Source: a virus (lineage: Duplodnaviria; Heunggongvirae; Uroviricota; Caudoviricetes). From it: a DNA stretch of 64,000 nucleotides. Below are positions 41,273-64,000 of the stretch, piece by piece. The stretch is from the IMG/VR virus record IMGVR_UViG_3300029305_004082, one strand, 5' to 3'. Both the position numbers and the translations under genes were made by a program. Numbering within the stretch: the stretch's first letter is position 1; each line of letters begins with the position of its first letter. The notes beneath the pieces were generated by a model. It did no database searches. It saw nothing but the letters and a program-made list of their open reading frames with translations, and was not told the DNA's origin.

Positions 41273-42452
41273 TAAAACTAACGTTTATCTAACAACTATG
41301 AGTAATCAAGAATACAAAATGACGATTTCAAAGTCAGAAATCATAAGAATACATCAAGAAGAATATATGAATGGGATAAGCACTACTAAACTCGGTAAAA
41401 AATACGAAGTAAGTAGCGCATATTTTTCGAGGTGGTTTAAGAAACTTGGGCTACCTGTAAGAAATAACTCGGATAAATCAAGGAAGTATGTTTTCAACGA
41501 AAACGTATTTGAAAAAATAGATACCGAGGAAAAGGCTTACTGGCTTGGTTTCCTATACGCCGATGGCTATATTATGTCTCGTAGAAAGAACGGTAATCCC
41601 AAGGTGGGGATTACGTTGAGCGTGAACGATATAGGTCATCTCGAAAAATTTAGAAAGTTTGTAAGTGGCGACATGCCTATTAAGATTTATAAGCCGTCAA
41701 AAAGTGGTTATGAAGGTTCTGGTGATTATTGCCGAATTTTAATAACAAGCGAAAAAATGGCGTCCGACCTTATAAGGCATGGTGTGTTAGAGCATAAAAC
41801 AAATGTGCTTAAACCACCTAAACTGCCGCCAACATTTATAAAACATTTTATACGTGGTTATTATGATGGGGACGGAAGTATCTGGTGTCAGTCGAATAAG
41901 AGCGGTAAAGACACTCAATATTCCGTGGGATTTGTTGGCACAAAAGACATGCTTGAATTTATACAGCAGGAGTTAATGAGCCGAAGAATTTTGACCCGTG
42001 AATATCCCATGAGCCGCCGCAGGCCAGATAGTGATGTGTTGCAGTGGAAGTTTGGCGGAAATAATATTGTTATTGATTATTTGATGTATTTGTATTCTGA
42101 TGCCTCAGTTTATTTAGAAAGGAAGCTTAGAAAAGCAGACGGTTTAAAAACGTTAGCATATAGTCGTTTATAGTGGAAACATTATAAATTATTAGGCGGT
42201 GAATTGCTGGAAACTCCTTAGAGCCGCACAAACCACAGCATAGCGGGAAACTGCAGGTGCGACGGTTAGAAAATTGTGCGGATTGGACAATCAGCAGCCG
42301 AGCTTCGTACAGAAGAAGGTTCAACGACTATCCGGCCACGGAGTAGGGGAGACCCGAAGTACCGCCCACCCTAACGTAAAGGCGAGGGTGAAGATATAGT
42401 CTATGCCCAACCTGCAGGTTGTTAAAGTACCGCGAAAGCGGGGGTACAACAG
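41273..42452 (+). mobile_element. group I self-splicing intron in dnaE
   Basis: Starts right after exon-1 terminal U with a TAA stop; ends in G before the exon-2 codon ATA; splicing gives ...RKEIGD|IDIDASPDDRDK..., collinear with DnaE PDFDVDF; 3' part contains GC-rich structured core (…TCAACGACTATCCGGCC…). Confidence 0.7.
41298..42173 (+). CDS. LAGLIDADG homing endonuclease encoded in the intron
   Basis: Two LAGLIDADG motifs: YWLGFLYADGYI and FIRGYYDGDGSI. Confidence 0.75.
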   Translation: MSNQEYKMTISKSEIIRIHQEEYMNGISTTKLGKKYEVSSAYFSRWFKKLGLPVRNNSDKSRKYVFNENVFEKIDTEEKAYWLGFLYADGYIMSRRKNGNPKVGITLSVNDIGHLEKFRKFVSGDMPIKIYKPSKSGYEGSGDYCRILITSEKMASDLIRHGVLEHKTNVLKPPKLPPTFIKHFIRGYYDGDGSIWCQSNKSGKDTQYSVGFVGTKDMLEFIQQELMSRRILTREYPMSRRRPDSDVLQWKFGGNNIVIDYLMYLYSDASVYLERKLRKADGLKTLAYSRL

Positions 42453-50018: not shown

Positions 50019-50092
50019 TGCCCCATGGTGTAATGGAAGCACATCTGCCTTTGAAGCAGAAGGCCACCGGTCGGTACGGTGTGGGGCAGCCA
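50019..50092 (+). tRNA. tRNA-Gln (anticodon UUG); unusual T-loop
   Basis: Acceptor TGCCCCA/TGGGGCA, D-arm GTGTaatggaaGCAC, anticodon arm TCTGC-cTTTGaa-GCAGA, T-stem CACCG/CGGTG with loop GTCGGTA, G73 then CCA encoded. Confidence 0.6.
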
Positions 50093-50113
50093 TTTATTTT
50101 TTTGGAGGAAATT

Positions 50114-50320
50114 ATGACGAATTTAGAATGGATAAAAGGATTGTCCGTAGAAGAAATGGCAGAATTTTTAACTTACTACAGATGGATTTGTTCTGATTGT
50201 CCTGAAGATAAATTGGTATATTGTAGTTGGGAATGTGAAAAACATCGCCGCGAATGGCTGATGAAAGAGCATGAGATGCGTATAGGTTCAGAATTTGAAA
50301 AGGAATGGCTGCAGGAATGA
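50114..50320 (+). CDS. hypothetical protein
   Basis: Start MTNLEWIKG with RBS GGAGGAAATT (the longer ORF would overlap the tRNA). Confidence 0.4.
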   Translation: MTNLEWIKGLSVEEMAEFLTYYRWICSDCPEDKLVYCSWECEKHRREWLMKEHEMRIGSEFEKEWLQE

Positions 50321-50619
50321 TTACAGATATGGAAACTTTTATGATGGATGAAAGTGACCGCATATGGGGCTTTCATGTTTACCGCCGCATGTTCACACCG
50401 TATGAACAAGATGCGAAGTTTATAGATGAAAGCTACTACGAGAATGGAACAATTATAAGCTACGGCAAAATTGTTGAAGCCATTGACCTTGGCGGCGGCG
50501 AATGGTTGCTCGGTATAAGAGAGTGTTGGGATGAAGGTAAAGAAGAATTAGAATATTCCGACTTTATAACGTATTACATGCTGAGTGAATTAAGGTTGAT
50601 GGCCAAGGTGGAAGAGTAG
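50305..50619 (+). CDS. hypothetical protein (alternative start 50317)
   Basis: 104-aa ORF. Confidence 0.4.
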   Translation: MAAGMITDMETFMMDESDRIWGFHVYRRMFTPYEQDAKFIDESYYENGTIISYGKIVEAIDLGGGEWLLGIRECWDEGKEELEYSDFITYYMLSELRLMAKVEE

Positions 50620-50627
50620 TACAGTGG

Positions 50628-50710
50628 GCGGATGTGGTGGAACGGCATACACAGCAGACTTAAAATCTGCCGGCGAAAGCTTGCGGGTTCAAATCCCGCC
50701 ATCCGCACCA
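50628..50710 (+). tRNA. tRNA-Leu (anticodon UAA)
   Basis: Acceptor GCGGATG/CATCCGC, anticodon arm GCAGA-cTTAAaa-TCTGC, long variable arm, T-arm CGGGTTCAAATCCCG, A73 + CCA. Confidence 0.75.
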
Positions 50711-50713
50711 AAC

Positions 50714-50788
50714 GCTGGTGTAGCTCAATGGCAGAGCAACTGATTTGTAATCAGTAGGTTGTAGGTTCGACTCCTATCACCAGCTCCA
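50714..50788 (+). tRNA. tRNA-Thr (anticodon UGU)
   Basis: Acceptor GCTGGTG/CACCAGC, D-arm TAGCTCAATGGCAGAGCA, anticodon arm ACTGA-tTTGTaa-TCAGT, T-arm TAGGTTCGACTCCTA, CCA encoded. Confidence 0.75.
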
Positions 50789-55363: not shown

Positions 55364-55963
55364 ATGAGCATATATAACAAAAATTGGTCGGTGGTTGTAG
55401 ACGTTGATGAGGTGCTGAACAACCTTATGACGGAAACGATATACCACCTTAAAGAAAGCTTTGCAATTGGAGATGACGAATTATCTCTGGATGACTTTAC
55501 TGAGTACGAGGTAAAGAAATGTGTGACGCCCGATGTTTACAACAAGATGGAAAAGGTTTGGGCCGACAAATCATTCTGGGGTAATCTTGTTCCCTCTGAT
55601 GGAGCAGTTGAAGCAATGCACAAGCTTATCCAGAACGGAATTGAGGTATTTATTATGACTGCTTGTACGCCCGACATTGTTGAAGGGCGCTCAAAATGGT
55701 TTGCAAAATGCTTTCCTTTTATAAAGCAGGAGAACATCATTTATGGCTATCCTAAATGGTTGGTTAAATGTGATTTTATACTCGAGGATAAACTGGAAAC
55801 CGTGATGAGGTCTCCTTCTTGGACGTATCGCGTGCTTGTAGACAAGCCTTGGAATAGGCGCAAATCTGACTTTGATGAAATTCATGGTATTATTCGCACC
55901 AAATCCGTAATGGATGCGGTTGAGCGAATAATTAAGATTGTTGATGATGAGAGGAATTGGTAG
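55364..55963 (+). CDS. 5'(3')-deoxyribonucleotidase (HAD superfamily, NT5C-like)
   Basis: HAD motif I VVVDVDEVLNN (DxDxV); overall size and pattern of phage/bacterial NT5C-type nucleotidases. Confidence 0.6.
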   Translation: MSIYNKNWSVVVDVDEVLNNLMTETIYHLKESFAIGDDELSLDDFTEYEVKKCVTPDVYNKMEKVWADKSFWGNLVPSDGAVEAMHKLIQNGIEVFIMTACTPDIVEGRSKWFAKCFPFIKQENIIYGYPKWLVKCDFILEDKLETVMRSPSWTYRVLVDKPWNRRKSDFDEIHGIIRTKSVMDAVERIIKIVDDERNW

Positions 55964-55965
55964 TT

Positions 55966-58158
55966 ATGGTAGTAAAACGAGACGGAAGGGTTGTGAAGTT
56001 TGATGGTGAAAGGGTTTATGCGGCGGTAATTAAGGCCATGAATGAGTGTGGTGTTAATGACGAGCAGCTTGCAGAAACCATAGCAGAAAAGACAGAAAAG
56101 AAATGTACCGATAAGGATGTTGGTGTTGAACAGATACAGGATTGGGTTGAAGAATACCTGATGGCATCTAAGTACAAGGATGTGGCGAGAGCGTACATTA
56201 AGTATCGTGATAGGCGTAACACGGTGCGTGAACGTAATGCCGAACTGCACCGCAAGATTAAGAATATTCTGGAATGCAATAACACCCAGAACAGCAATGC
56301 CAATGTAGATGAGTTTTCTTATAGTGGCAGAAAGTTTGAGAGCGCAAACGCCATGCATAAGGATTTTGCCCTCAACGAATACATGTCGCCCGAGGTAGCG
56401 GAGGCCCACAGGGAAGGCCGTTTATACAACCATGACCTGAGCGAGTATGACGTAGGTTCCCACAACTGTTTGTTTGCAGACGTAGCAAAACTCCTCAACA
56501 ATGGTTTTACCACCAGAAACGGGGATGTGCGTCCCGCAAACTCATTCTCAACGGCATGTCAGCTTGTGGCTGTTATTTTCCAGATACAGAGTCAAGTACA
56601 GTTTGGCGGCTGTGCTTCTGCGCACCTTGATTATGACCTTGCTTCTTTTGTTCGCAAGAGCTTTGCAAAGAAGTTGCGTGACGGTATCAAATGGGTAGAA
56701 GGTGTTGAGCCTCATGTTCCCGATGAAGTGGATATTGCCGACCCCGTTTGGAGCGAAGGCCATCCTGCGGCACACAGGTATGCTATGAGTATGCTTGAAA
56801 AGGAACTGGCACAGTCTTGTCAGGGTTTATTCCACAACCTCAACACGCTGGAAAGCCGCGCAGGGTCTCAGGTGCCTTTCACCTCTATTAACTTTGGGCG
56901 CGACACTTCTCCAGAGGGAAGGATGGTTATTAAACATCTTCTGGAAGCAAGTTTGGACGGCATTGGCAAGCATCATAGAACCCCCATTTTCCCTATATCT
57001 ATTTTTAACTACAAGAAGGGCGTTAATGATAAGCCCGGTACTCCCAACTACGACATGAAACAGCTTGCCATCAAGTCTCTGTCGAAGCGCATTTATCCTA
57101 ATATTGTTAACGGTGATTGGAGCCGCAACGTGGATGACCCCGACAATCCCGACACCTATATGGCTACTATGGGTTGCCGCACTCTGCTCGGCAAGGATAG
57201 GCACGGTCTTGGCTATTCCAAGATTGGTCGCGGCAACGTGTGTCCTGTAACAATGAATCTTCCCGCAATCGGCATTAACCATGGTATTTGCCTTGGTGAA
57301 AGAACTGAACCCGACCTTGACGGATTCTGGGCCGAGCTGGATGAAGTGCTTGCGCTCACCGAAAAGGCGCTCATCGACAGGTTCTATCACATTTGCAGCC
57401 AGAGTGTTAAGTCCGCGCCTTTCATGTATGATAACGGTACTATTGCGGATGCCGAAGCCGCTCGTGAGAAGGGCATATACGAAGCTATGAAGCATGGCAC
57501 ACTGGCAATCGGCTATATCGGCATTGCGGAAATGTGTAAGGCTTTGTTTGGCAAGTACCACGATGAGGATGAAGATGTGCTCAGGTTTGCTGTGAGTGTT
57601 GTAGAACATATTGCAAACTACGTAAATGAAGCCGCAGAACGTAACAACCTGAACTTCTCCTGTTATGCCACTCCCGCAGAAAGCCTGTGCAAGACTTTTG
57701 CTGAATCCCTTAAAAAGAAGTACGGCGTAATCGAAGGTGTATGTGATAGGGAATACATCACTAATTCTCATCACGTTCCTGTGTGGGAAAAGGTTTCTAT
57801 TTACCGCAAGCTTGAAATCGAAGCTCAGTTCTGTAAGTACCCCACTGGCGGCTGCATTACCTACATTGAACTGGAAAGTTCCGTGGTAAATAACCACAAG
57901 GCTATTGAGGATATTATTGACTACGCTATGTCTCTGGATATCCCTTACCTCGCATTCAATTTCCCCATTGATTCCTGCCTTGCTTGCGGCTATCAGGGCG
58001 AAATCGAAGAAAACTGTCCCGCTTGCAACGGTACAAACATAGAGAGACTGCGCAGAGTAACTGGTTATCTTACTACGGACTATCGTAATTTTAACGATGG
58101 CAAGATTGCTGAGTGTCTCGACAGAGTAAAACATTCTAAATACACGGAGTTTAAGTAA
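55966..58158 (+). CDS. nrdD: anaerobic ribonucleoside-triphosphate reductase NrdD
   Basis: N-terminal ATP-cone (VVKRDGRVVKFDGERVYAAVIKA), C-terminal Zn site CLACGYQGE...CPACNG and glycyl-radical motif RRVTGYL. Confidence 0.85.
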   Translation: MVVKRDGRVVKFDGERVYAAVIKAMNECGVNDEQLAETIAEKTEKKCTDKDVGVEQIQDWVEEYLMASKYKDVARAYIKYRDRRNTVRERNAELHRKIKNILECNNTQNSNANVDEFSYSGRKFESANAMHKDFALNEYMSPEVAEAHREGRLYNHDLSEYDVGSHNCLFADVAKLLNNGFTTRNGDVRPANSFSTACQLVAVIFQIQSQVQFGGCASAHLDYDLASFVRKSFAKKLRDGIKWVEGVEPHVPDEVDIADPVWSEGHPAAHRYAMSMLEKELAQSCQGLFHNLNTLESRAGSQVPFTSINFGRDTSPEGRMVIKHLLEASLDGIGKHHRTPIFPISIFNYKKGVNDKPGTPNYDMKQLAIKSLSKRIYPNIVNGDWSRNVDDPDNPDTYMATMGCRTLLGKDRHGLGYSKIGRGNVCPVTMNLPAIGINHGICLGERTEPDLDGFWAELDEVLALTEKALIDRFYHICSQSVKSAPFMYDNGTIADAEAAREKGIYEAMKHGTLAIGYIGIAEMCKALFGKYHDEDEDVLRFAVSVVEHIANYVNEAAERNNLNFSCYATPAESLCKTFAESLKKKYGVIEGVCDREYITNSHHVPVWEKVSIYRKLEIEAQFCKYPTGGCITYIELESSVVNNHKAIEDIIDYAMSLDIPYLAFNFPIDSCLACGYQGEIEENCPACNGTNIERLRRVTGYLTTDYRNFNDGKIAECLDRVKHSKYTEFK

Positions 58159-58160
58159 TA

Positions 58161-58673
58161 ATGAATATTGTCGGCATAGATTTTGAATCTATTGCTGATG
58201 GCGTAGGCGTAAGGGTTGTAGTATTCGTCGCAGGTTGTAAGCACAACTGCGCAGGGTGCCACAACCCTGATTCGCATTCGTTCACAGCAGGTAAGCCTTT
58301 CACCGAAGATATCCAAAAAGAAATAATTGAATACGTGCGGCAGACACCTTATATCAGCGGCATTACTATGAGCGGAGGAGACCCTGTTTTTAGCATTGAC
58401 GATACTATTTCTTTTCTGGACATGGTGGCTGATGAACTGCCTGACATAGATGTGTGGCTGTACACGGGTTTTACGTTTGAAGAGCTTTATGGCGAAATTG
58501 ACAGAGGTAGGAAGTTGCTTTCCTTGGTTAATGTACTTGTTGACGGCAAATTCGATATAACCAAACGTAGCGTAAACCTGCCGTATCGTGGTAGTTCAAA
58601 CCAGAGGATTATTGACGTATATGAAAGCTGTAAGGCTGAGAAAGCAATATTGGTTAAGGAGTTTGAAGAGTAG
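58161..58673 (+). CDS. nrdG: anaerobic RNR activating enzyme NrdG (radical SAM)
   Basis: CKHNCAGCHNP (CxxxCxxC) near the N-terminus; immediately downstream of nrdD. Confidence 0.8.
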   Translation: MNIVGIDFESIADGVGVRVVVFVAGCKHNCAGCHNPDSHSFTAGKPFTEDIQKEIIEYVRQTPYISGITMSGGDPVFSIDDTISFLDMVADELPDIDVWLYTGFTFEELYGEIDRGRKLLSLVNVLVDGKFDITKRSVNLPYRGSSNQRIIDVYESCKAEKAILVKEFEE

Positions 58674-59210
58674 ATGAATACAAGATTTGAAGTATTACAG
58701 GAAGATGCGGTAATGCCTATCCGCGCTACAAAAACTTCCTGTGGTTATGACTTTTATGCAACTGAGGACATAAAAATTCCTCCGCAGACCGCCGTTAAGT
58801 TTAATACTGGCATTGCGGCGCACATTAACGATGATGAGTTCCTGATGATTGTGCCTCGCAGCAGTATCGGCATTAAGCGTCATCTGATGCTTTCCAATAC
58901 AGTTGGTGTAATCGACAGTGATTTTATTAACGGTGATACCAAGGGTAATATTATTATAAGCCTGTACAATTACGCTCCTGCGATTAAGTATGACGGAGAT
59001 ATGGAAATAGATGTTCGTGATGTTTACATAAATTTTGGTATTAAGAGAATTCCTATTCCCGTAATAATTGACCTTACAGAAGAGAATACTGTTTATATCC
59101 AGAAAGGGGAGCGTGTGGCTCAGGGCATAATACTGAATTACAACGTAATGGATGAAGACAACTGCAGTCAGAGCGAGCGTACAGGCGGCGTTGGCAGTAG
59201 TGGAAAGTAA
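58674..59210 (+). CDS. dut: dUTP diphosphatase (trimeric dUTPase)
   Basis: Motifs PRSSIG, GVIDSDF, GERVAQ, ERTGGVGSSG. Confidence 0.75.
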   Translation: MNTRFEVLQEDAVMPIRATKTSCGYDFYATEDIKIPPQTAVKFNTGIAAHINDDEFLMIVPRSSIGIKRHLMLSNTVGVIDSDFINGDTKGNIIISLYNYAPAIKYDGDMEIDVRDVYINFGIKRIPIPVIIDLTEENTVYIQKGERVAQGIILNYNVMDEDNCSQSERTGGVGSSGK

Positions 59211-59212
59211 CA

Positions 59213-59245
59213 TTACGGCGGGGGCAACCCCGCCTTTTTTATTTT
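59213..59245 (+). terminator. rho-independent terminator
   Basis: GGCGGGGGCAACCCCGCC + TTTTTTATTTT. Confidence 0.7.
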
Positions 59246-59254
59246 GGAGGAAAA

Positions 59255-59394
59255 TGTTTGAAAAAAGCTTTGCGGAAACATTATTAGAATTGTTGTGTGA
59301 TGATTATGTTTTAACAGAAGAAGAAACAGGTCTTGCTATAGCAAACATCCAGGTGTATTATGATAGCATAGAACACAAAAGGAGAGAAACATGA
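59255..59394 (+). CDS. small protein (46 aa)
   Basis: RBS TTGGAGGAAAATG; overlaps the integrase start. Confidence 0.3.
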
Positions 59395-60968
59395 GAGCCT
59401 GTTTTTACGCAAGAGTTTCCACAGAAGAAGAAAAGCAAGCTGACGCTCTGGTAATACAATGCCAAGAGTTGCGGGACTTTATTGCGGAAATGGGATGGGA
59501 ATTGGTGCGGGAGTATGTTGATGAAGGTAAGTCCGGCACAACAATAAAGAAAAGAGATGAATATCGAAACCTGTACAATGACCTCGGGGAAGATATCTTT
59601 GACGTGGTTGTAATTAAGTCGCAGGATAGGTTGATGCGTAGTGCAAAAGACTGGTATACTTTCCTCAGCCGCATGGTTGAAAATGGGAAGAAATTATACT
59701 TTTTTATTGACCGCAAATTCTATCAGTCTGATGATAGCTTGATTACGGGCATTAAGGCGATACTCGCAGAAGATTATAGCCGAGAACTTTCCAAAAAGAT
59801 AAATAATGCAACTCGCACAAGACAAAAGAATGGGTCGAGTATTATAACGAATGGCTCTATGTGGGGGTTCGAGCAGAAAGACGGAGAGCTTATTGTTGTG
59901 CCCAAGGAAGCTGAATTAATACGGCGCATATTTAAAATGTATGCCGACGGTATGGGCGCACGCAGAATAAAGGCTACTCTTGATGAAGAAGGTGTTGTTT
60001 CCAGAAGAGGAACCAAAATTGGCCTTACTACATTAAAGAGGATGATAAGCAATCCTATTTATTATGGCACCGTAGTTCAAAATAAACTCCACTTTGATTT
60101 TGACACAAAGAAGATTAATCGTGTTGACGAAAAGGAGTGGGTATGGCACGAGAATAGGGTTGAACCTATCGTATCAAAAGAATTGTGGGATAAGGCGAAC
60201 GAACAAAGAGTTCGAAACACAACCAGTGACGGAACTGCGCGGCGTGGTATTAAGAGAGGTTCTTATCCACTGTCCAGTAAAATAGTGTGCGGCGATTGCG
60301 GCGCAAAATATCATCACGTATACCGCATTTTTGCCAGAGGAGAGAATTTGCCCTGTTGGATTTGCGGCACCTACCAGAATTATGGAAGGAAGCACCCGCA
60401 AGGAAAACCTGAGCGGACAATGGGTTGCGACAATCCGTTGGTGCGGCAAGATTACCTTGATGAAATATTCGCTAAAATTGCGGAGAATTACGAGGAAGAC
60501 TTCGTGCGTGGCCTGCAGGTTGCTATGAAGGCTATTGCGGCTGCAATTAGTTCCGGCGCGGCAGAAAAAGAGATTGCGGAATTGCGGCAAAGGTTACAGG
60601 AAGTGGAACATAAGAAAGAGCTTTTGCTGGATAATCTGTTAGATGGTACAATAAGTAAAGAAATGTACGCCAGAAGAAATGCTAAGTTTGAAGATGATTG
60701 TGCGGCATTGGAAGAAAAGATTGCCAGACTGGAAGAAACCAATAGGAAGAGAGGAAGCATAGAGAATAGACTTAATAAGATAAAAGAAGAAATAGAAAAT
60801 ACCTATGATAAAAAAGCTCGTGTTGCAACTATAATGAACCACGTTGAGTGCGTTACAGTTTACAGCGACAAGGTGACTATTAAGCTTGATATGTTAAAGG
60901 ATGTTGTGGAAGTTGTTGACGGCAATGTTCCCGCAGAAGAACGCTATAAAATTGTATCGGTAAATTAA
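59391..60968 (+). CDS. large serine recombinase (integrase)
   Basis: N-terminus CFYARVSTEEE (catalytic Ser), resolvase domain, recombinase domain, zinc ribbon (CGDCGAKYHH...CWICG), C-terminal coiled coil; 525 aa. Confidence 0.8.
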   Translation: MRACFYARVSTEEEKQADALVIQCQELRDFIAEMGWELVREYVDEGKSGTTIKKRDEYRNLYNDLGEDIFDVVVIKSQDRLMRSAKDWYTFLSRMVENGKKLYFFIDRKFYQSDDSLITGIKAILAEDYSRELSKKINNATRTRQKNGSSIITNGSMWGFEQKDGELIVVPKEAELIRRIFKMYADGMGARRIKATLDEEGVVSRRGTKIGLTTLKRMISNPIYYGTVVQNKLHFDFDTKKINRVDEKEWVWHENRVEPIVSKELWDKANEQRVRNTTSDGTARRGIKRGSYPLSSKIVCGDCGAKYHHVYRIFARGENLPCWICGTYQNYGRKHPQGKPERTMGCDNPLVRQDYLDEIFAKIAENYEEDFVRGLQVAMKAIAAAISSGAAEKEIAELRQRLQEVEHKKELLLDNLLDGTISKEMYARRNAKFEDDCAALEEKIARLEETNRKRGSIENRLNKIKEEIENTYDKKARVATIMNHVECVTVYSDKVTIKLDMLKDVVEVVDGNVPAEERYKIVSVN

Positions 60969-61080: not shown

Positions 61081-61148
61081 ATTGTAGATTTTTTAATAAT
61101 ATGATAACATGTTTTATGAAAGTATAACGTTAAAGGAGAACTTTGCCG

Positions 61149-62180
61149 ATGCGCCGTTTCTTTTTGGTTATTATATTACTATTATGCTTTACCACTGCCG
61201 CATGTGGAGAATGTGAGCATGAATATATCCAGAAAGAAAGTATTCCGTCTACTTGCGAAGAACAAGAAGTGGTGTATGAATGTACAAAATGTGGACACAC
61301 CATTCATCAAATAAGTGTTGGAGAAGGGCATAAATATTCCGAAACCGTCATAAAAGAAGCAACGTACACTCAGGCCGGTGAGGTTATGTATACTTGTTCT
61401 GTTTGCGGGGATAGTTACACAGAAGCTACACCCATAAAAGAGGAAGAAGTTACTGTTGTTGCTATTGGTAAAAACTCTGTGGACGATGAGCTGTTTGAAT
61501 ATATTGAGATTACTTTTGAGATTACAAACCACACAGATAAGTCCGTTATAGGTATTGATGGCAATGTAGAAATATCTGATTTATACGATAGGCAAATTGC
61601 ATATATACCTTTTACTATTGCGCAGAAAAAGATACAGGCTGGCGAGACCATTACAGTTGTAGGGACTCAATATATGTTCAGTGATGAGTTATGGGATGCA
61701 TATTACAAGGATTTCGACCAACTCATTATTAATTATGATATTGTAGATATTGCTTATCTTGAAGATGAGGTAGAACAGCGTAAGGAAGAGACTTTTATTG
61801 AAACGAATACCTGCGAAAAGGTTACGGTCACTGTTACTGATAAACATAGTCTTGAGGAAAATTGGGATAGGGGTCGGTATTCACCTCGTGTTGAATTTGA
61901 TTTTTCTATAAGCAATAACACCGATAAACCAATAAAAGGGGTTGATGGTACTTTAACTATTTATGATATGTTTGACCAAGAAATAATTGTGGTTAGTGCC
62001 GATTTTACTGAACATATCATAAAACCAACAGAAACGGCTACATATGAAGGGATAGGCATAGATGTTAACCAGTTTAGAACAGAACATGTTCGATTGTATA
62101 GCGAGGATTATGAGAATTTATCCTTTAAATACGATGTGTCAATGATAGTTTATGAAGACGGCACCAAGGAAGAATTTTAA
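61149..62180 (+). CDS. secreted/lipoprotein with two tandem ~120-aa repeat domains
   Basis: Signal peptide MRRFFLVIILLLCFTTAAC; repeats ...ITFEITNHTDKSVIGIDGNVEISDLYDRQI... and ...FDFSISNNTDKPIKGVDGTLTIYDMFDQEI... Confidence 0.5.
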   Translation: MRRFFLVIILLLCFTTAACGECEHEYIQKESIPSTCEEQEVVYECTKCGHTIHQISVGEGHKYSETVIKEATYTQAGEVMYTCSVCGDSYTEATPIKEEEVTVVAIGKNSVDDELFEYIEITFEITNHTDKSVIGIDGNVEISDLYDRQIAYIPFTIAQKKIQAGETITVVGTQYMFSDELWDAYYKDFDQLIINYDIVDIAYLEDEVEQRKEETFIETNTCEKVTVTVTDKHSLEENWDRGRYSPRVEFDFSISNNTDKPIKGVDGTLTIYDMFDQEIIVVSADFTEHIIKPTETATYEGIGIDVNQFRTEHVRLYSEDYENLSFKYDVSMIVYEDGTKEEF

Positions 62181-62252: not shown

Positions 62253-62852
62253 TTACTCTGCCTTATTAAATATTGCAGATACGTCGGCAGGGTCATAAAC
62301 AAGTGTGTTAGTTGCATTAGCATAGCAAACATAAATATTGCCATCTTTTGCACTACGCACTTTCATGCCTATTGTAACCGCCATATTTCTTATATAGGGA
62401 TAAACACCTTCGGAATCAGGAGTGGGCCTTATTCCGTACAGTGCTTCTACGCCCAGTGCATCAGGGGGATATACAGAACTGGACGTAAGTTTCTGTTTTG
62501 CAAAATAAGCATTGCCCTTGTATATAAACATATCGTACTGTTCATAATCAGTGTTCTCGTGCCACTCATCGTAAGTAAACACCCCTGCGTTTGCCGAAGG
62601 TTCAGTGCCAGATGATTTTGCTGATGTTTGCACAATTTCCGCTCCTGCGGCGTTCAAAAGGTTTATTCTATTTGCCCCATCGAACCAATAAATATCAACA
62701 TTTCCAATGGGCTCAACAATATCATTTCCAATAACAACACCTTCTGCCTCGGTTTGTTCAACGGGGATATATATATCATTTCTATTCTTTTTTACAAGAA
62801 TGAGTTCATCACACAAGATGAACCTCTCGCCATCCTTTATTATTTCATACAT
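62253..62852 (-). CDS. hypothetical protein downstream of the DGR RT
   Basis: RBS AAGGAG 8 nt upstream; 199 aa; overlaps the RT stop by 13 nt (co-transcribed). Confidence 0.5.
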   Translation of the reverse strand: MYEIIKDGERFILCDELILVKKNRNDIYIPVEQTEAEGVVIGNDIVEPIGNVDIYWFDGANRINLLNAAGAEIVQTSAKSSGTEPSANAGVFTYDEWHENTDYEQYDMFIYKGNAYFAKQKLTSSSVYPPDALGVEALYGIRPTPDSEGVYPYIRNMAVTIGMKVRSAKDGNIYVCYANATNTLVYDPADVSAIFNKAE

Positions 62853-63964
62853 AAGAATAACTCCTTATATAGTTCATTTAGTCTCTGTCGTGTTTTATAA
62901 GCATTATAATAGTTGGCGTACCCAACCCAAGACTTACATGATGTCCAAACATCGTCGATTGTCATTTTGCCGCTATCAACAAATCTTTTAAATTTCTTGA
63001 GTTTTCGACGCATAGTAGTGACCGACCGAGGATTAATTCTTTTTATGACACGTCCTGTATCGGTAAGAAAGAAATGGCCTTTAAGAAAATTTACGCCGCG
63101 AGAAAGCTTTATTATCTGAGTCTTTTTCTCATTAAGTTTAATACCTAACTCATTACATATGGAGCGTATTTCGACCAAACACTTCTGCAGATACTCTTTG
63201 CTTGGGTGAATAAGGTAAGCATCATCCATGTAACGGGCATAACAATGCACACGGAGTTTTTCTTTTATATAGTGGTCAAGACGATTAGGCAGAGCTAAAG
63301 CGGCTATTTGAGACACTTGACTACCCAAACCCAAACCAACATTTCCAAATTGGCGAATAAAATATTTGGTTTGTTCGCATAGCTTTTCGTCGGAGATACA
63401 CCTATCTATTTCCTTAAAAATAGCGTCGTGGTTTGCCAAATCAAAGTATTTAGAAAAGTCAAAGGTGAGCACATAACCCTCTGTGCCGTATCGCCGATAA
63501 TGCCAGCGCATATGCTCGCACAACCTATTCATTGTAAAATGAATTCCTTTACCTTTAAGACTGGCTCCGTTGTCATAAATAAAAGTGCAACTTAATGCGG
63601 AAACAAGGTGGTTATCACACAAACAACGTTGCACGACTCTTTCGCTGATATGTACACTGCGGATGTGTCGAGGTTTGCCTCGTTCCATGATATCAAACTC
63701 AACAAACCCTTTGCTTCTATATGCGCCGTTTATTAGTTCTTTATGTGTGCGGTATGCTTTGGCGAGATGTCCGGCAACATAACCCTGCACACTGGTTTTC
63801 CACATAACGCCATTCTTGCATTTATTAAACGCAGAGTATATGTTTTCAAAGCTAAACACTTCTTCGTATGTCATAGCATTTCGTTTACGCTTTTGCTCTT
63901 CTCGCTTTGCTTTTCTTCTTTGATATCGAGCCTCATGTCTTTCTTCGCTCGTCATAAAAAACAC
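62840..63964 (-). CDS. diversity-generating retroelement (DGR)-type reverse transcriptase
   Basis: N-terminus FENIYSAFNKCKNGVMWK...FDIMERGKPRHIRSVHISERVVQRC (DGR-RT pattern F.NLY.A...A.KGKR...F.I.EPK.R.I.....DRVVHHA); motif 4 GLGSQVSQIAALALPNRLDHYIKEKL (SQ in place of group-II QGG.ISP); YARYMDDAYLI (YxDD); GIKLNEKKTQII; 374 aa, no X/En domains. Confidence 0.7.
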   Translation of the reverse strand: MFFMTSEERHEARYQRRKAKREEQKRKRNAMTYEEVFSFENIYSAFNKCKNGVMWKTSVQGYVAGHLAKAYRTHKELINGAYRSKGFVEFDIMERGKPRHIRSVHISERVVQRCLCDNHLVSALSCTFIYDNGASLKGKGIHFTMNRLCEHMRWHYRRYGTEGYVLTFDFSKYFDLANHDAIFKEIDRCISDEKLCEQTKYFIRQFGNVGLGLGSQVSQIAALALPNRLDHYIKEKLRVHCYARYMDDAYLIHPSKEYLQKCLVEIRSICNELGIKLNEKKTQIIKLSRGVNFLKGHFFLTDTGRVIKRINPRSVTTMRRKLKKFKRFVDSGKMTIDDVWTSCKSWVGYANYYNAYKTRQRLNELYKELFLCMK

Positions 63965-64000
63965 CTCCGTGTATAGCGGGTTAACTATGAAAACGGAATT

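Follow-up and report, generated by a model that had tools for sequence, protein, structure and literature searches.

Diversity-generating retroelements (DGRs) use reverse transcription to rewrite the tip of the protein by which a phage binds its receptor. In Bordetella phage BPP-1, the cassette is ordered mtd-avd-TR-brt, and it combines a target gene carrying a C-terminal VR, an accessory gene for a protein of about 130 aa, a template repeat (TR), a structured spacer RNA, and a reverse transcriptase (RT). Here, TR and VR differ at adenines only, and a small co-directional ORF (bbp4) overlaps the 3′ end of brt by 20 nt. The BPP-1 DGR contains the RNA motif RT-10, and Weinberg et al. (PMC5737381) offered the guess that other RT motifs serve other DGRs. 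Another described group comprises the DGRs of gut Bacillota phages with DUF6273 targets, namely those of Roseburia phage Shimadzu, the Faecalibacterium phages Lelie, Roos, and Pioen, and nd4 and nd12. DUF6273 is described as a C-type-lectin-like DGR target domain of gut phages (PMC10743442), and PMC11792537 describes a target whose VR lies at the C-terminal end of its DUF6273 domain, such that targets of this type are already published for gut phages. In Shimadzu, the order runs tail fibre-Avd-RT-2 RNA-RT, and a small ORF (orf25) then follows that overlaps the RT gene by 4 nt.

We analysed a stretch of 64,000 nucleotides from a tailed phage (Caudoviricetes; IMG/VR record IMGVR_UViG_3300029305_004082), referred to hereafter as the window. 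With high confidence, we conclude that the window ends in a canonical phage DGR of the layout target(VR)-avd-TR-RT-2 RNA-RT, and that the 199-aa gene found after the RT is a CBM-like late or virion neighbour. Of this layout, the window itself includes just the RT gene and the 3′-terminal 59 nt of the RT-2 RNA. Each of the BPP-1 components named above has a counterpart in the same order at this locus, including the adenine-only differences and the small ORF over the RT 3′ end, and the two RTs align over nearly their full length and share the IGxxxSQ and YMDD motifs. In contrast, the RT is only 26% identical to that of BPP-1, the Avd lacks detectable profile similarity, the target is a DUF6273 protein rather than Mtd, the TR measures 107 nt rather than 134 nt, and the spacer RNA is Rfam RT-2 rather than RT-10 (PMC5737381). 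While the Shimadzu order is the same, the differences from the DGRs of gut Bacillota phages include an RT identity of less than 50%, an Avd identity of about 24%, and a phage-like contig that at ~115 kb is much larger. Moreover, the window has anaerobic ribonucleotide reductase genes, tRNAs, and a group I intron, and the 199-aa CBM-like gene after the RT occurs in the present lineage only.

The genes at the window end

Two co-directional ORFs on the minus strand, the RT and the 199-aa gene, fill the final 1.75 kb of the window (Table 1). The RT ORF was listed from a GTG start (62840–63964; 374 aa), though the ATG at 63955, which lies 8 nt 3′ of a GGAGG and gives a product of 371 aa, is probably the better choice and the GTG probably not the start. 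In fact, five metagenome contigs record the 371-aa product exactly, and an exact look-up of the 374-aa product found none on record. The first-pass annotation, which had been made from the sequence alone, counted 36 nt upstream of the RT start within the window. This figure is right for the GTG and becomes 45 nt from the ATG, though the bases concerned are not a spacer, but the 3′ end of the RT-2 RNA, which runs on past the window.

The RT translation carries FSFENIYSAFNKCKNG, FVEFDIMERGKPRHIRSV, GLGLGSQVSQIAALALPNRLDH, and ARYMDDAY, and thereby all the motifs quoted in that annotation, which align with IGSLTSQ and YMDD of Brt. RVT_1 is the sole Pfam domain (E 2.3e-16), and no maturase or endonuclease domain was found by Pfam, which bears out the earlier description of a small RT devoid of both. 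Against PHROG, the RT matched phrog_1423 (E 2e-81). At the nucleotide level, a megablast search with the last 4 kb of the window gave no match in the phage collection.

Table 1. Features of the DGR and of the adjoining gene. Virtual positions lie beyond position 64,000 and are taken from metagenome contig L011.
Feature	Position	Strand	Basis and remarks
199-aa gene	62253..62852	(-)	ORF; own AAGGAG site; overlaps RT stop by 13 nt
DGR reverse transcriptase gene, 371 aa from ATG	62840..63955	(-)	ORF, RVT_1, phrog_1423, Brt match
RT Shine-Dalgarno GGAGG, in 3′ strand of RT-2 long-range helix	63964..63968	(-)	sequence, cmscan alignment
RT-2 RNA, 3′ 59 nt within window	63942..64000	(-)	L011 mapping; other 122 nt past window
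RT-2 RNA (Rfam RF03077), full	virtual 63942-64122	(-)	L011:806-986, 103.2 bits, E 2.1e-24
TR	virtual 64126-64232	(-)	from L011; 171-277 nt upstream of RT start codon
avd	virtual 64246-64638	(-)	from L011; 291-683 nt upstream of RT start codon
VR, in target C-terminus	virtual 64701-64807	(-)	from L011; 746-852 nt upstream of RT start codon

The TR, VR, avd, and target beyond the window edge

The first-pass annotation had stated that TR, VR, and Avd are absent from the window and had expected them, together with a hypervariable target, just past position 64,000 on the minus strand. On both counts it proved correct. Within the window, neither a direct-repeat search nor blastn with the true TR revealed a TR/VR pair, and when both strands of the whole window were scanned with the true TR in an adenine-tolerant manner, the best site had more than 45% mismatches at non-A positions. 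Outside it, contigs with the exact RT reach 317–584 nt upstream, where the C-terminus of a small ORF and then an AAC-rich stretch are seen. Foremost among the extending sequences is metagenome contig L011, which equals the window end over 701 of 701 overlapping bases and holds all the predicted parts within about 810 bases of the edge: VR (121–227), target stop (235–237), avd (290–682), TR (696–802), and the RT ATG (973). As the parts past position 64,000 are placed by reference to identical or 95%-identical metagenome contigs, the virtual positions in Table 1 are where they would lie in this genome.

The TR and VR are each 107 nt long, and in L011 all 14 of their 14 mismatches fall at TR adenines, of which there are 31, which is the adenine-restricted repeat pair that had been anticipated for the extended sequence. 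The same layout is found in a 91%-identical element (L012) and in three ~115-kb contigs that are 95% identical to the window (L013–L015). In these four loci, exactly one VR is present each time, with no non-A mismatches over the 107 nt and with 17–24 A mismatches. The shared 3′ end of TR and VR is GC-rich (GGCGTGGCTTGCGG), and a GC hairpin of 8 bp (GCGCCGCC / GGCGGCG(G); −18.5 kcal/mol) is located 3′ of the VR. Exact searches for the avd pattern in viral_contigs and for the A-masked TR pattern in metagenome_contigs both returned 0 matches.

With regard to contig ends (L001–L005, L011, L015), every short contig with the exact RT ends 317–584 nt upstream of it, either in avd or near the TR, and the 115.7-kb contig behind L015 ends in the target gene, just upstream of the VR. 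Such ends at the element probably arose where the TR/VR repeat or the variable VR interrupted assembly. In addition, metagenome gene callers placed an ORF of 85 aa on the strand opposite the TR and RT-2 RNA (L001:260–517 (−), and at the same site in L002, L004, and L005). Since it runs over the TR and a structured RNA, this ORF is most probably not a genuine gene.

The Avd candidate (P0001), recovered by protein search, is a 130-aa protein encoded between the target and TR. It is predicted to be all-helical with four main helices and has a pI of 8.3, and its PHROG match is phrog_3206 ("Avd protein of DGR"), with an E-value of 6.9e-6, or of 9.4e-9 for the version in L013. It thereby resembles the small basic Avd-like protein foreseen for this region. 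A match to the annotated Avd of Shimadzu was also obtained (E 2e-7; about 24% identity), and 3 of 13 homologues weakly touch the NCBIfam model DivGenRetAVD. Here, Pfam and NCBIfam gave no match for P0001 itself, hhalign detected no similarity to BPP-1 Avd, and the Avd profile found no match among PDB sequences. For a 97-aa fragment of the protein, Pfam and PHROG returned nothing, and only the full-length protein matched. An AF2 model built from three sequences (pLDDT 51) is unreliable apart from its all-helical character. Judged by these weak sequence links, the 130-aa ORF is a putative Avd.

The target is a 371-aa protein with Pfam DUF6273 at residues 231–358 (E 1.5e-8), and the VR encodes its residues 334–369. 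By analogy with the description of DUF6273 in PMC10743442, the target would adopt a C-type-lectin-like fold. Elsewhere upstream, a Mtd_N protein (PF18454; E 5.4e-12) is encoded about 5–7 kb from the DGR target (L013:249–1082, L014:1295–2134), and L014 contains a second DUF6273 protein of 226 aa without a VR (L014:2131–2811).

The RT-2 spacer RNA

In L011, the RT-2 RNA begins 4 nt after the TR and runs across the RT start. The cmscan alignment has ACGGAGGUG pairing as the "]" strand of the motif, and an Rfam search with the last 300 nt of the window alone did not detect the truncated RNA. Placement between TR and RT is shared by the present element and 9 of 13 related loci (103–145 bits). More specifically, an RT-2 RNA lies directly 3′ of the TR in L012, L013, Shimadzu, and eight further RT-related loci, and it begins 2–16 nt past the TR end in those loci where both were mapped. 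The RNA may have a role in priming.

The 199-aa gene after the RT

According to its AF2 model (pLDDT 89.6), the 199-aa protein begins with a small β domain, followed by a long helix and then by a C-terminal half resembling a tandem CBM5/12. In a Foldseek search, this half matched the tandem CBM of a Vibrio chitin oligosaccharide deacetylase (E 2.4e-5; probability 1.0), and the protein also matched fibre/receptor-complex chains of the Agrobacterium phages 7-7-1 and Milano (9rkv, 8fqc). While the C-terminal half superposes on all of these, there are differences from the CBM5/12 modules, in that the protein scores below the Pfam threshold for PF02839 (14.4 versus 26.2 bits), its N-terminal 60-aa β domain has no match, and sugar binding is a prediction from the modelled fold. 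PF02839 is carried by many of the homologues. A tblastn search with the protein gave no match in the phage collection.

The first-pass annotation regarded a gene coupled downstream of the RT as unusual, and it proposed that the gene could be either a novel accessory factor or an atypically placed target. The arrangement is, however, a common one: most of the 54 related loci described below have a co-directional ORF at −28 to +13 nt from the RT stop, and bbp4 of BPP-1 and orf25 of Shimadzu are alike in this respect. Neither proposed role found support. If the protein were a lineage-specific DGR accessory factor, it would be made in step with the RT by translational coupling, and the 13-nt overlap with the RT stop is indeed conserved in the 91%-identical L012 and in L013–L015. 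Against this, a homologue with 55% identity starts 10 nt after a 331-aa DUF6273 gene in L016–L018, where no avd, TR, or RT lies between the two genes or anywhere in 16 kb. This DUF6273 gene is 60% identical to the DGR target, with the VR-equivalent end included. Furthermore, more distant homologues (46% identity over the C-terminal domain) sit between the portal and MuF genes of a myovirus-type contig, and RT relatives at 52–58% identity are followed by other, unrelated small ORFs, some of which share the N-domain or a CBM-like C-terminus. The modelled fold itself resembles that of a carbohydrate-binding module and not a nucleic-acid-binding one. Because homologues occur without any RT, whether beside a non-DGR DUF6273 gene or in a head module, the gene is not RT-linked, and we consider an accessory function very unlikely.

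With respect to the DUF6273 gene of L016–L018 (L016:6995–7990, and likewise in L017 and L018), its C-terminus is VR-like (TRSPYTDGSDIFCGVSVSGSPDIIFASKSFGVACGFDI), and no TR for this end, nor any avd or RT, was found within the 11–16.6 kb searched. The gene may have been a target formerly, or a TR located far away on the 100-kb contig may serve it.

We thus view the 199-aa gene as a neighbour and not a component of the DGR, one that, judging from the modelled fold, encodes a sugar-binding virion-type protein. The conservation, fold, and context of the gene together suggest that it belongs to the late or virion gene set. Its function is proposed from the fold and gene context, and a tail location is uncertain because the distant homologues are found in the head module.

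Diversification of the target

L013 and L014 encode targets whose only differences lie in the VR, and since otherwise identical targets carry different VRs, the element appears to diversify in nature. Moreover, the TRs of L011, L012, and L013 differ from each other at non-A positions, and there each VR tracks its own TR. At the level of sequence, this pattern is the signature of information flow from TR to VR and of natural diversification. In a mechanism like that of BPP-1, a transcript spanning the TR and the RT-2 spacer RNA would be bound by the RT together with Avd and then reverse-transcribed, with misincorporation opposite the template adenines. The resulting cDNA would replace the 107-nt VR, that is, residues 334–369 of the DUF6273 (presumably C-type-lectin-like) protein, and the ligand-binding surface of the phage would therefore change. 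The priming step, the contribution of Avd, and homing in this element are likewise modelled on BPP-1 and should be read as presumptive.

Alternatively, the cassette might be a decayed and inactive relic, a view to which the divergence of the Avd lends itself. This is most unlikely, given that the RT ORF is intact with its YMDD and SQ motifs, the RT-2 RNA is present in full, and not one non-A mismatch is seen over 107 nt in five loci, among which the VRs vary between otherwise identical targets. That the 199-aa gene is a second, atypically placed target might be argued from its position adjoining the RT and from its predicted carbohydrate-binding fold, as is often found in receptor-binding proteins. 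We judge this exceedingly improbable: the adenine-tolerant scan revealed no VR in the gene, which is why it is not a target, the five loci have exactly one VR each and always in the DUF6273 gene, and the 199-aa protein is 91–96% conserved among strains without a hypervariable patch.

Structural and sequence relatives of the RT

A search against the PDB identified 8ub7_A as the best solved relative of the RT (E 4.4e-22), with a group II intron RT as the runner-up (E 1.5e-8). By BLASTP, the RT aligned with the product of BPP-1 brt over 349 columns (26% identity; E 4e-27), with LGSQVSQ placed opposite IGSLTSQ of Brt and YMDD opposite YMDD. Because this alignment and that with 8ub7_A are the same, residue for residue, we take 8ub7_A to be Brt; a literature search for a paper on PDB code 8UB7 found none. 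Among annotated phage genomes, matches to the RT included known DGR phages, namely Shimadzu (47%), nd4, nd12, Faecalibacterium phages, and Bordetella phages, the closest RTs being 32–47% identical. For a wider comparison, 54 loci with RT relatives at 24–58% identity were fetched. An adenine-biased TR/VR pair is located upstream of the RT in 43 of them, most of the remainder being too short upstream of the RT, and the order DUF6273 homologue-Avd homologue-RT is kept in most of the 54.

All NCBIfam matches of the RT, none of them to a DGR RT model, were below cut-off, with group_II_RT_mat (TIGR04416) at the top (83 bits versus 300), followed by Drt3a (40 versus 200), retron St85 (33 versus 235), and AbiA (23 versus 250). 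Although these weak matches would favour a group II intron, retron, or defence (Drt, AbiA) RT over a DGR one, the chance of this is virtually nil, as every score is far under its cut-off, the RT is without a maturase or endonuclease domain, no group II intron RNA is found in L011 or near the RT in the window, Brt leads the other solved relatives by 14 orders of magnitude, and the adenine-specific TR/VR pair directly upstream of the RT refutes it by its presence. The original assignment of a DGR-type RT is accordingly upheld by its best solved relative, by the sub-threshold scores of the other RT families, group II intron and retron included, and by the repeat pair.

Other features of the window and related contigs

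Convergent with the DGR is a block of plus-strand genes (55957–60968) for a NrdD-like protein (733 aa), a NrdG-like activase, a dUTPase, and a large serine recombinase (525 aa), with labels taken from Pfam searches on the syntenic L001 and L013. The NrdD ORF is 733 aa long in the window versus 615 aa in L013, and similarity drops in this region. Positioned between this block and the 199-aa gene, and convergent with the latter, is a 345-aa ORF (61143–62180 (+)), whose product is hydrophobic at the N-terminus, contains CxxC pairs, and bears two similar repeats towards the C-terminus; its sole match is phrog_16659 of unknown function. At its position, L012 has a different protein, a 261-aa zinc-ribbon protein on the other strand. 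Farther away, the window contains a group I catalytic intron (42144–42423 (+); Rfam RF00028, 87 bits, E 7.8e-21) and three tRNA genes, Gln(ttg), Leu(taa), and Thr(tgt) (50019–50788 (+)), on which ARAGORN and Rfam agree. In a Clostridiales MAG, a type II hammerhead ribozyme (L023:10035–10099 (+); RF02276, 42.5 bits versus a gathering score of 37) was seen about 3 kb downstream of a related DGR RT.

Implications

The element is one more of a well-described kind, that is, a DGR with a DUF6273 target. It adds one such system in a ~115-kb phage-like genome and matters little beyond correct annotation. An anaerobic member of the Bacillota may be the host, given that most MAGs with the closest relatives of the RT belong to the Clostridia.

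Two further ideas can be put forward, which, taken jointly, we consider unlikely, if still worth stating. For one, the diversified DUF6273 protein and the 199-aa protein could associate physically, the latter serving, for example, as a co-receptor-binding subunit comparable to the small chains in the receptor-binding complex of Milano. On this view, insertion of the avd-TR-RT block would have separated the genes of two partners, and coupling to the RT stop would preserve their co-expression. For another, the RT-2 long-range helix covers the RT Shine-Dalgarno in the aligned sequence, and the folded template RNA could thereby throttle RT translation.

More generally, the orphan Rfam motif RT-2 is situated between TR and RT in this DGR clade, which fits the guess made in PMC5737381. 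The locus pair is also instructive: in one case the DUF6273 gene is followed directly by the CBM gene, and in the other DUF6273-avd-TR-RT precedes it. Since the homologue of the 199-aa gene comes directly after the target homologue in the relative, the avd-TR-RT block sits between two virion genes that are otherwise adjacent.
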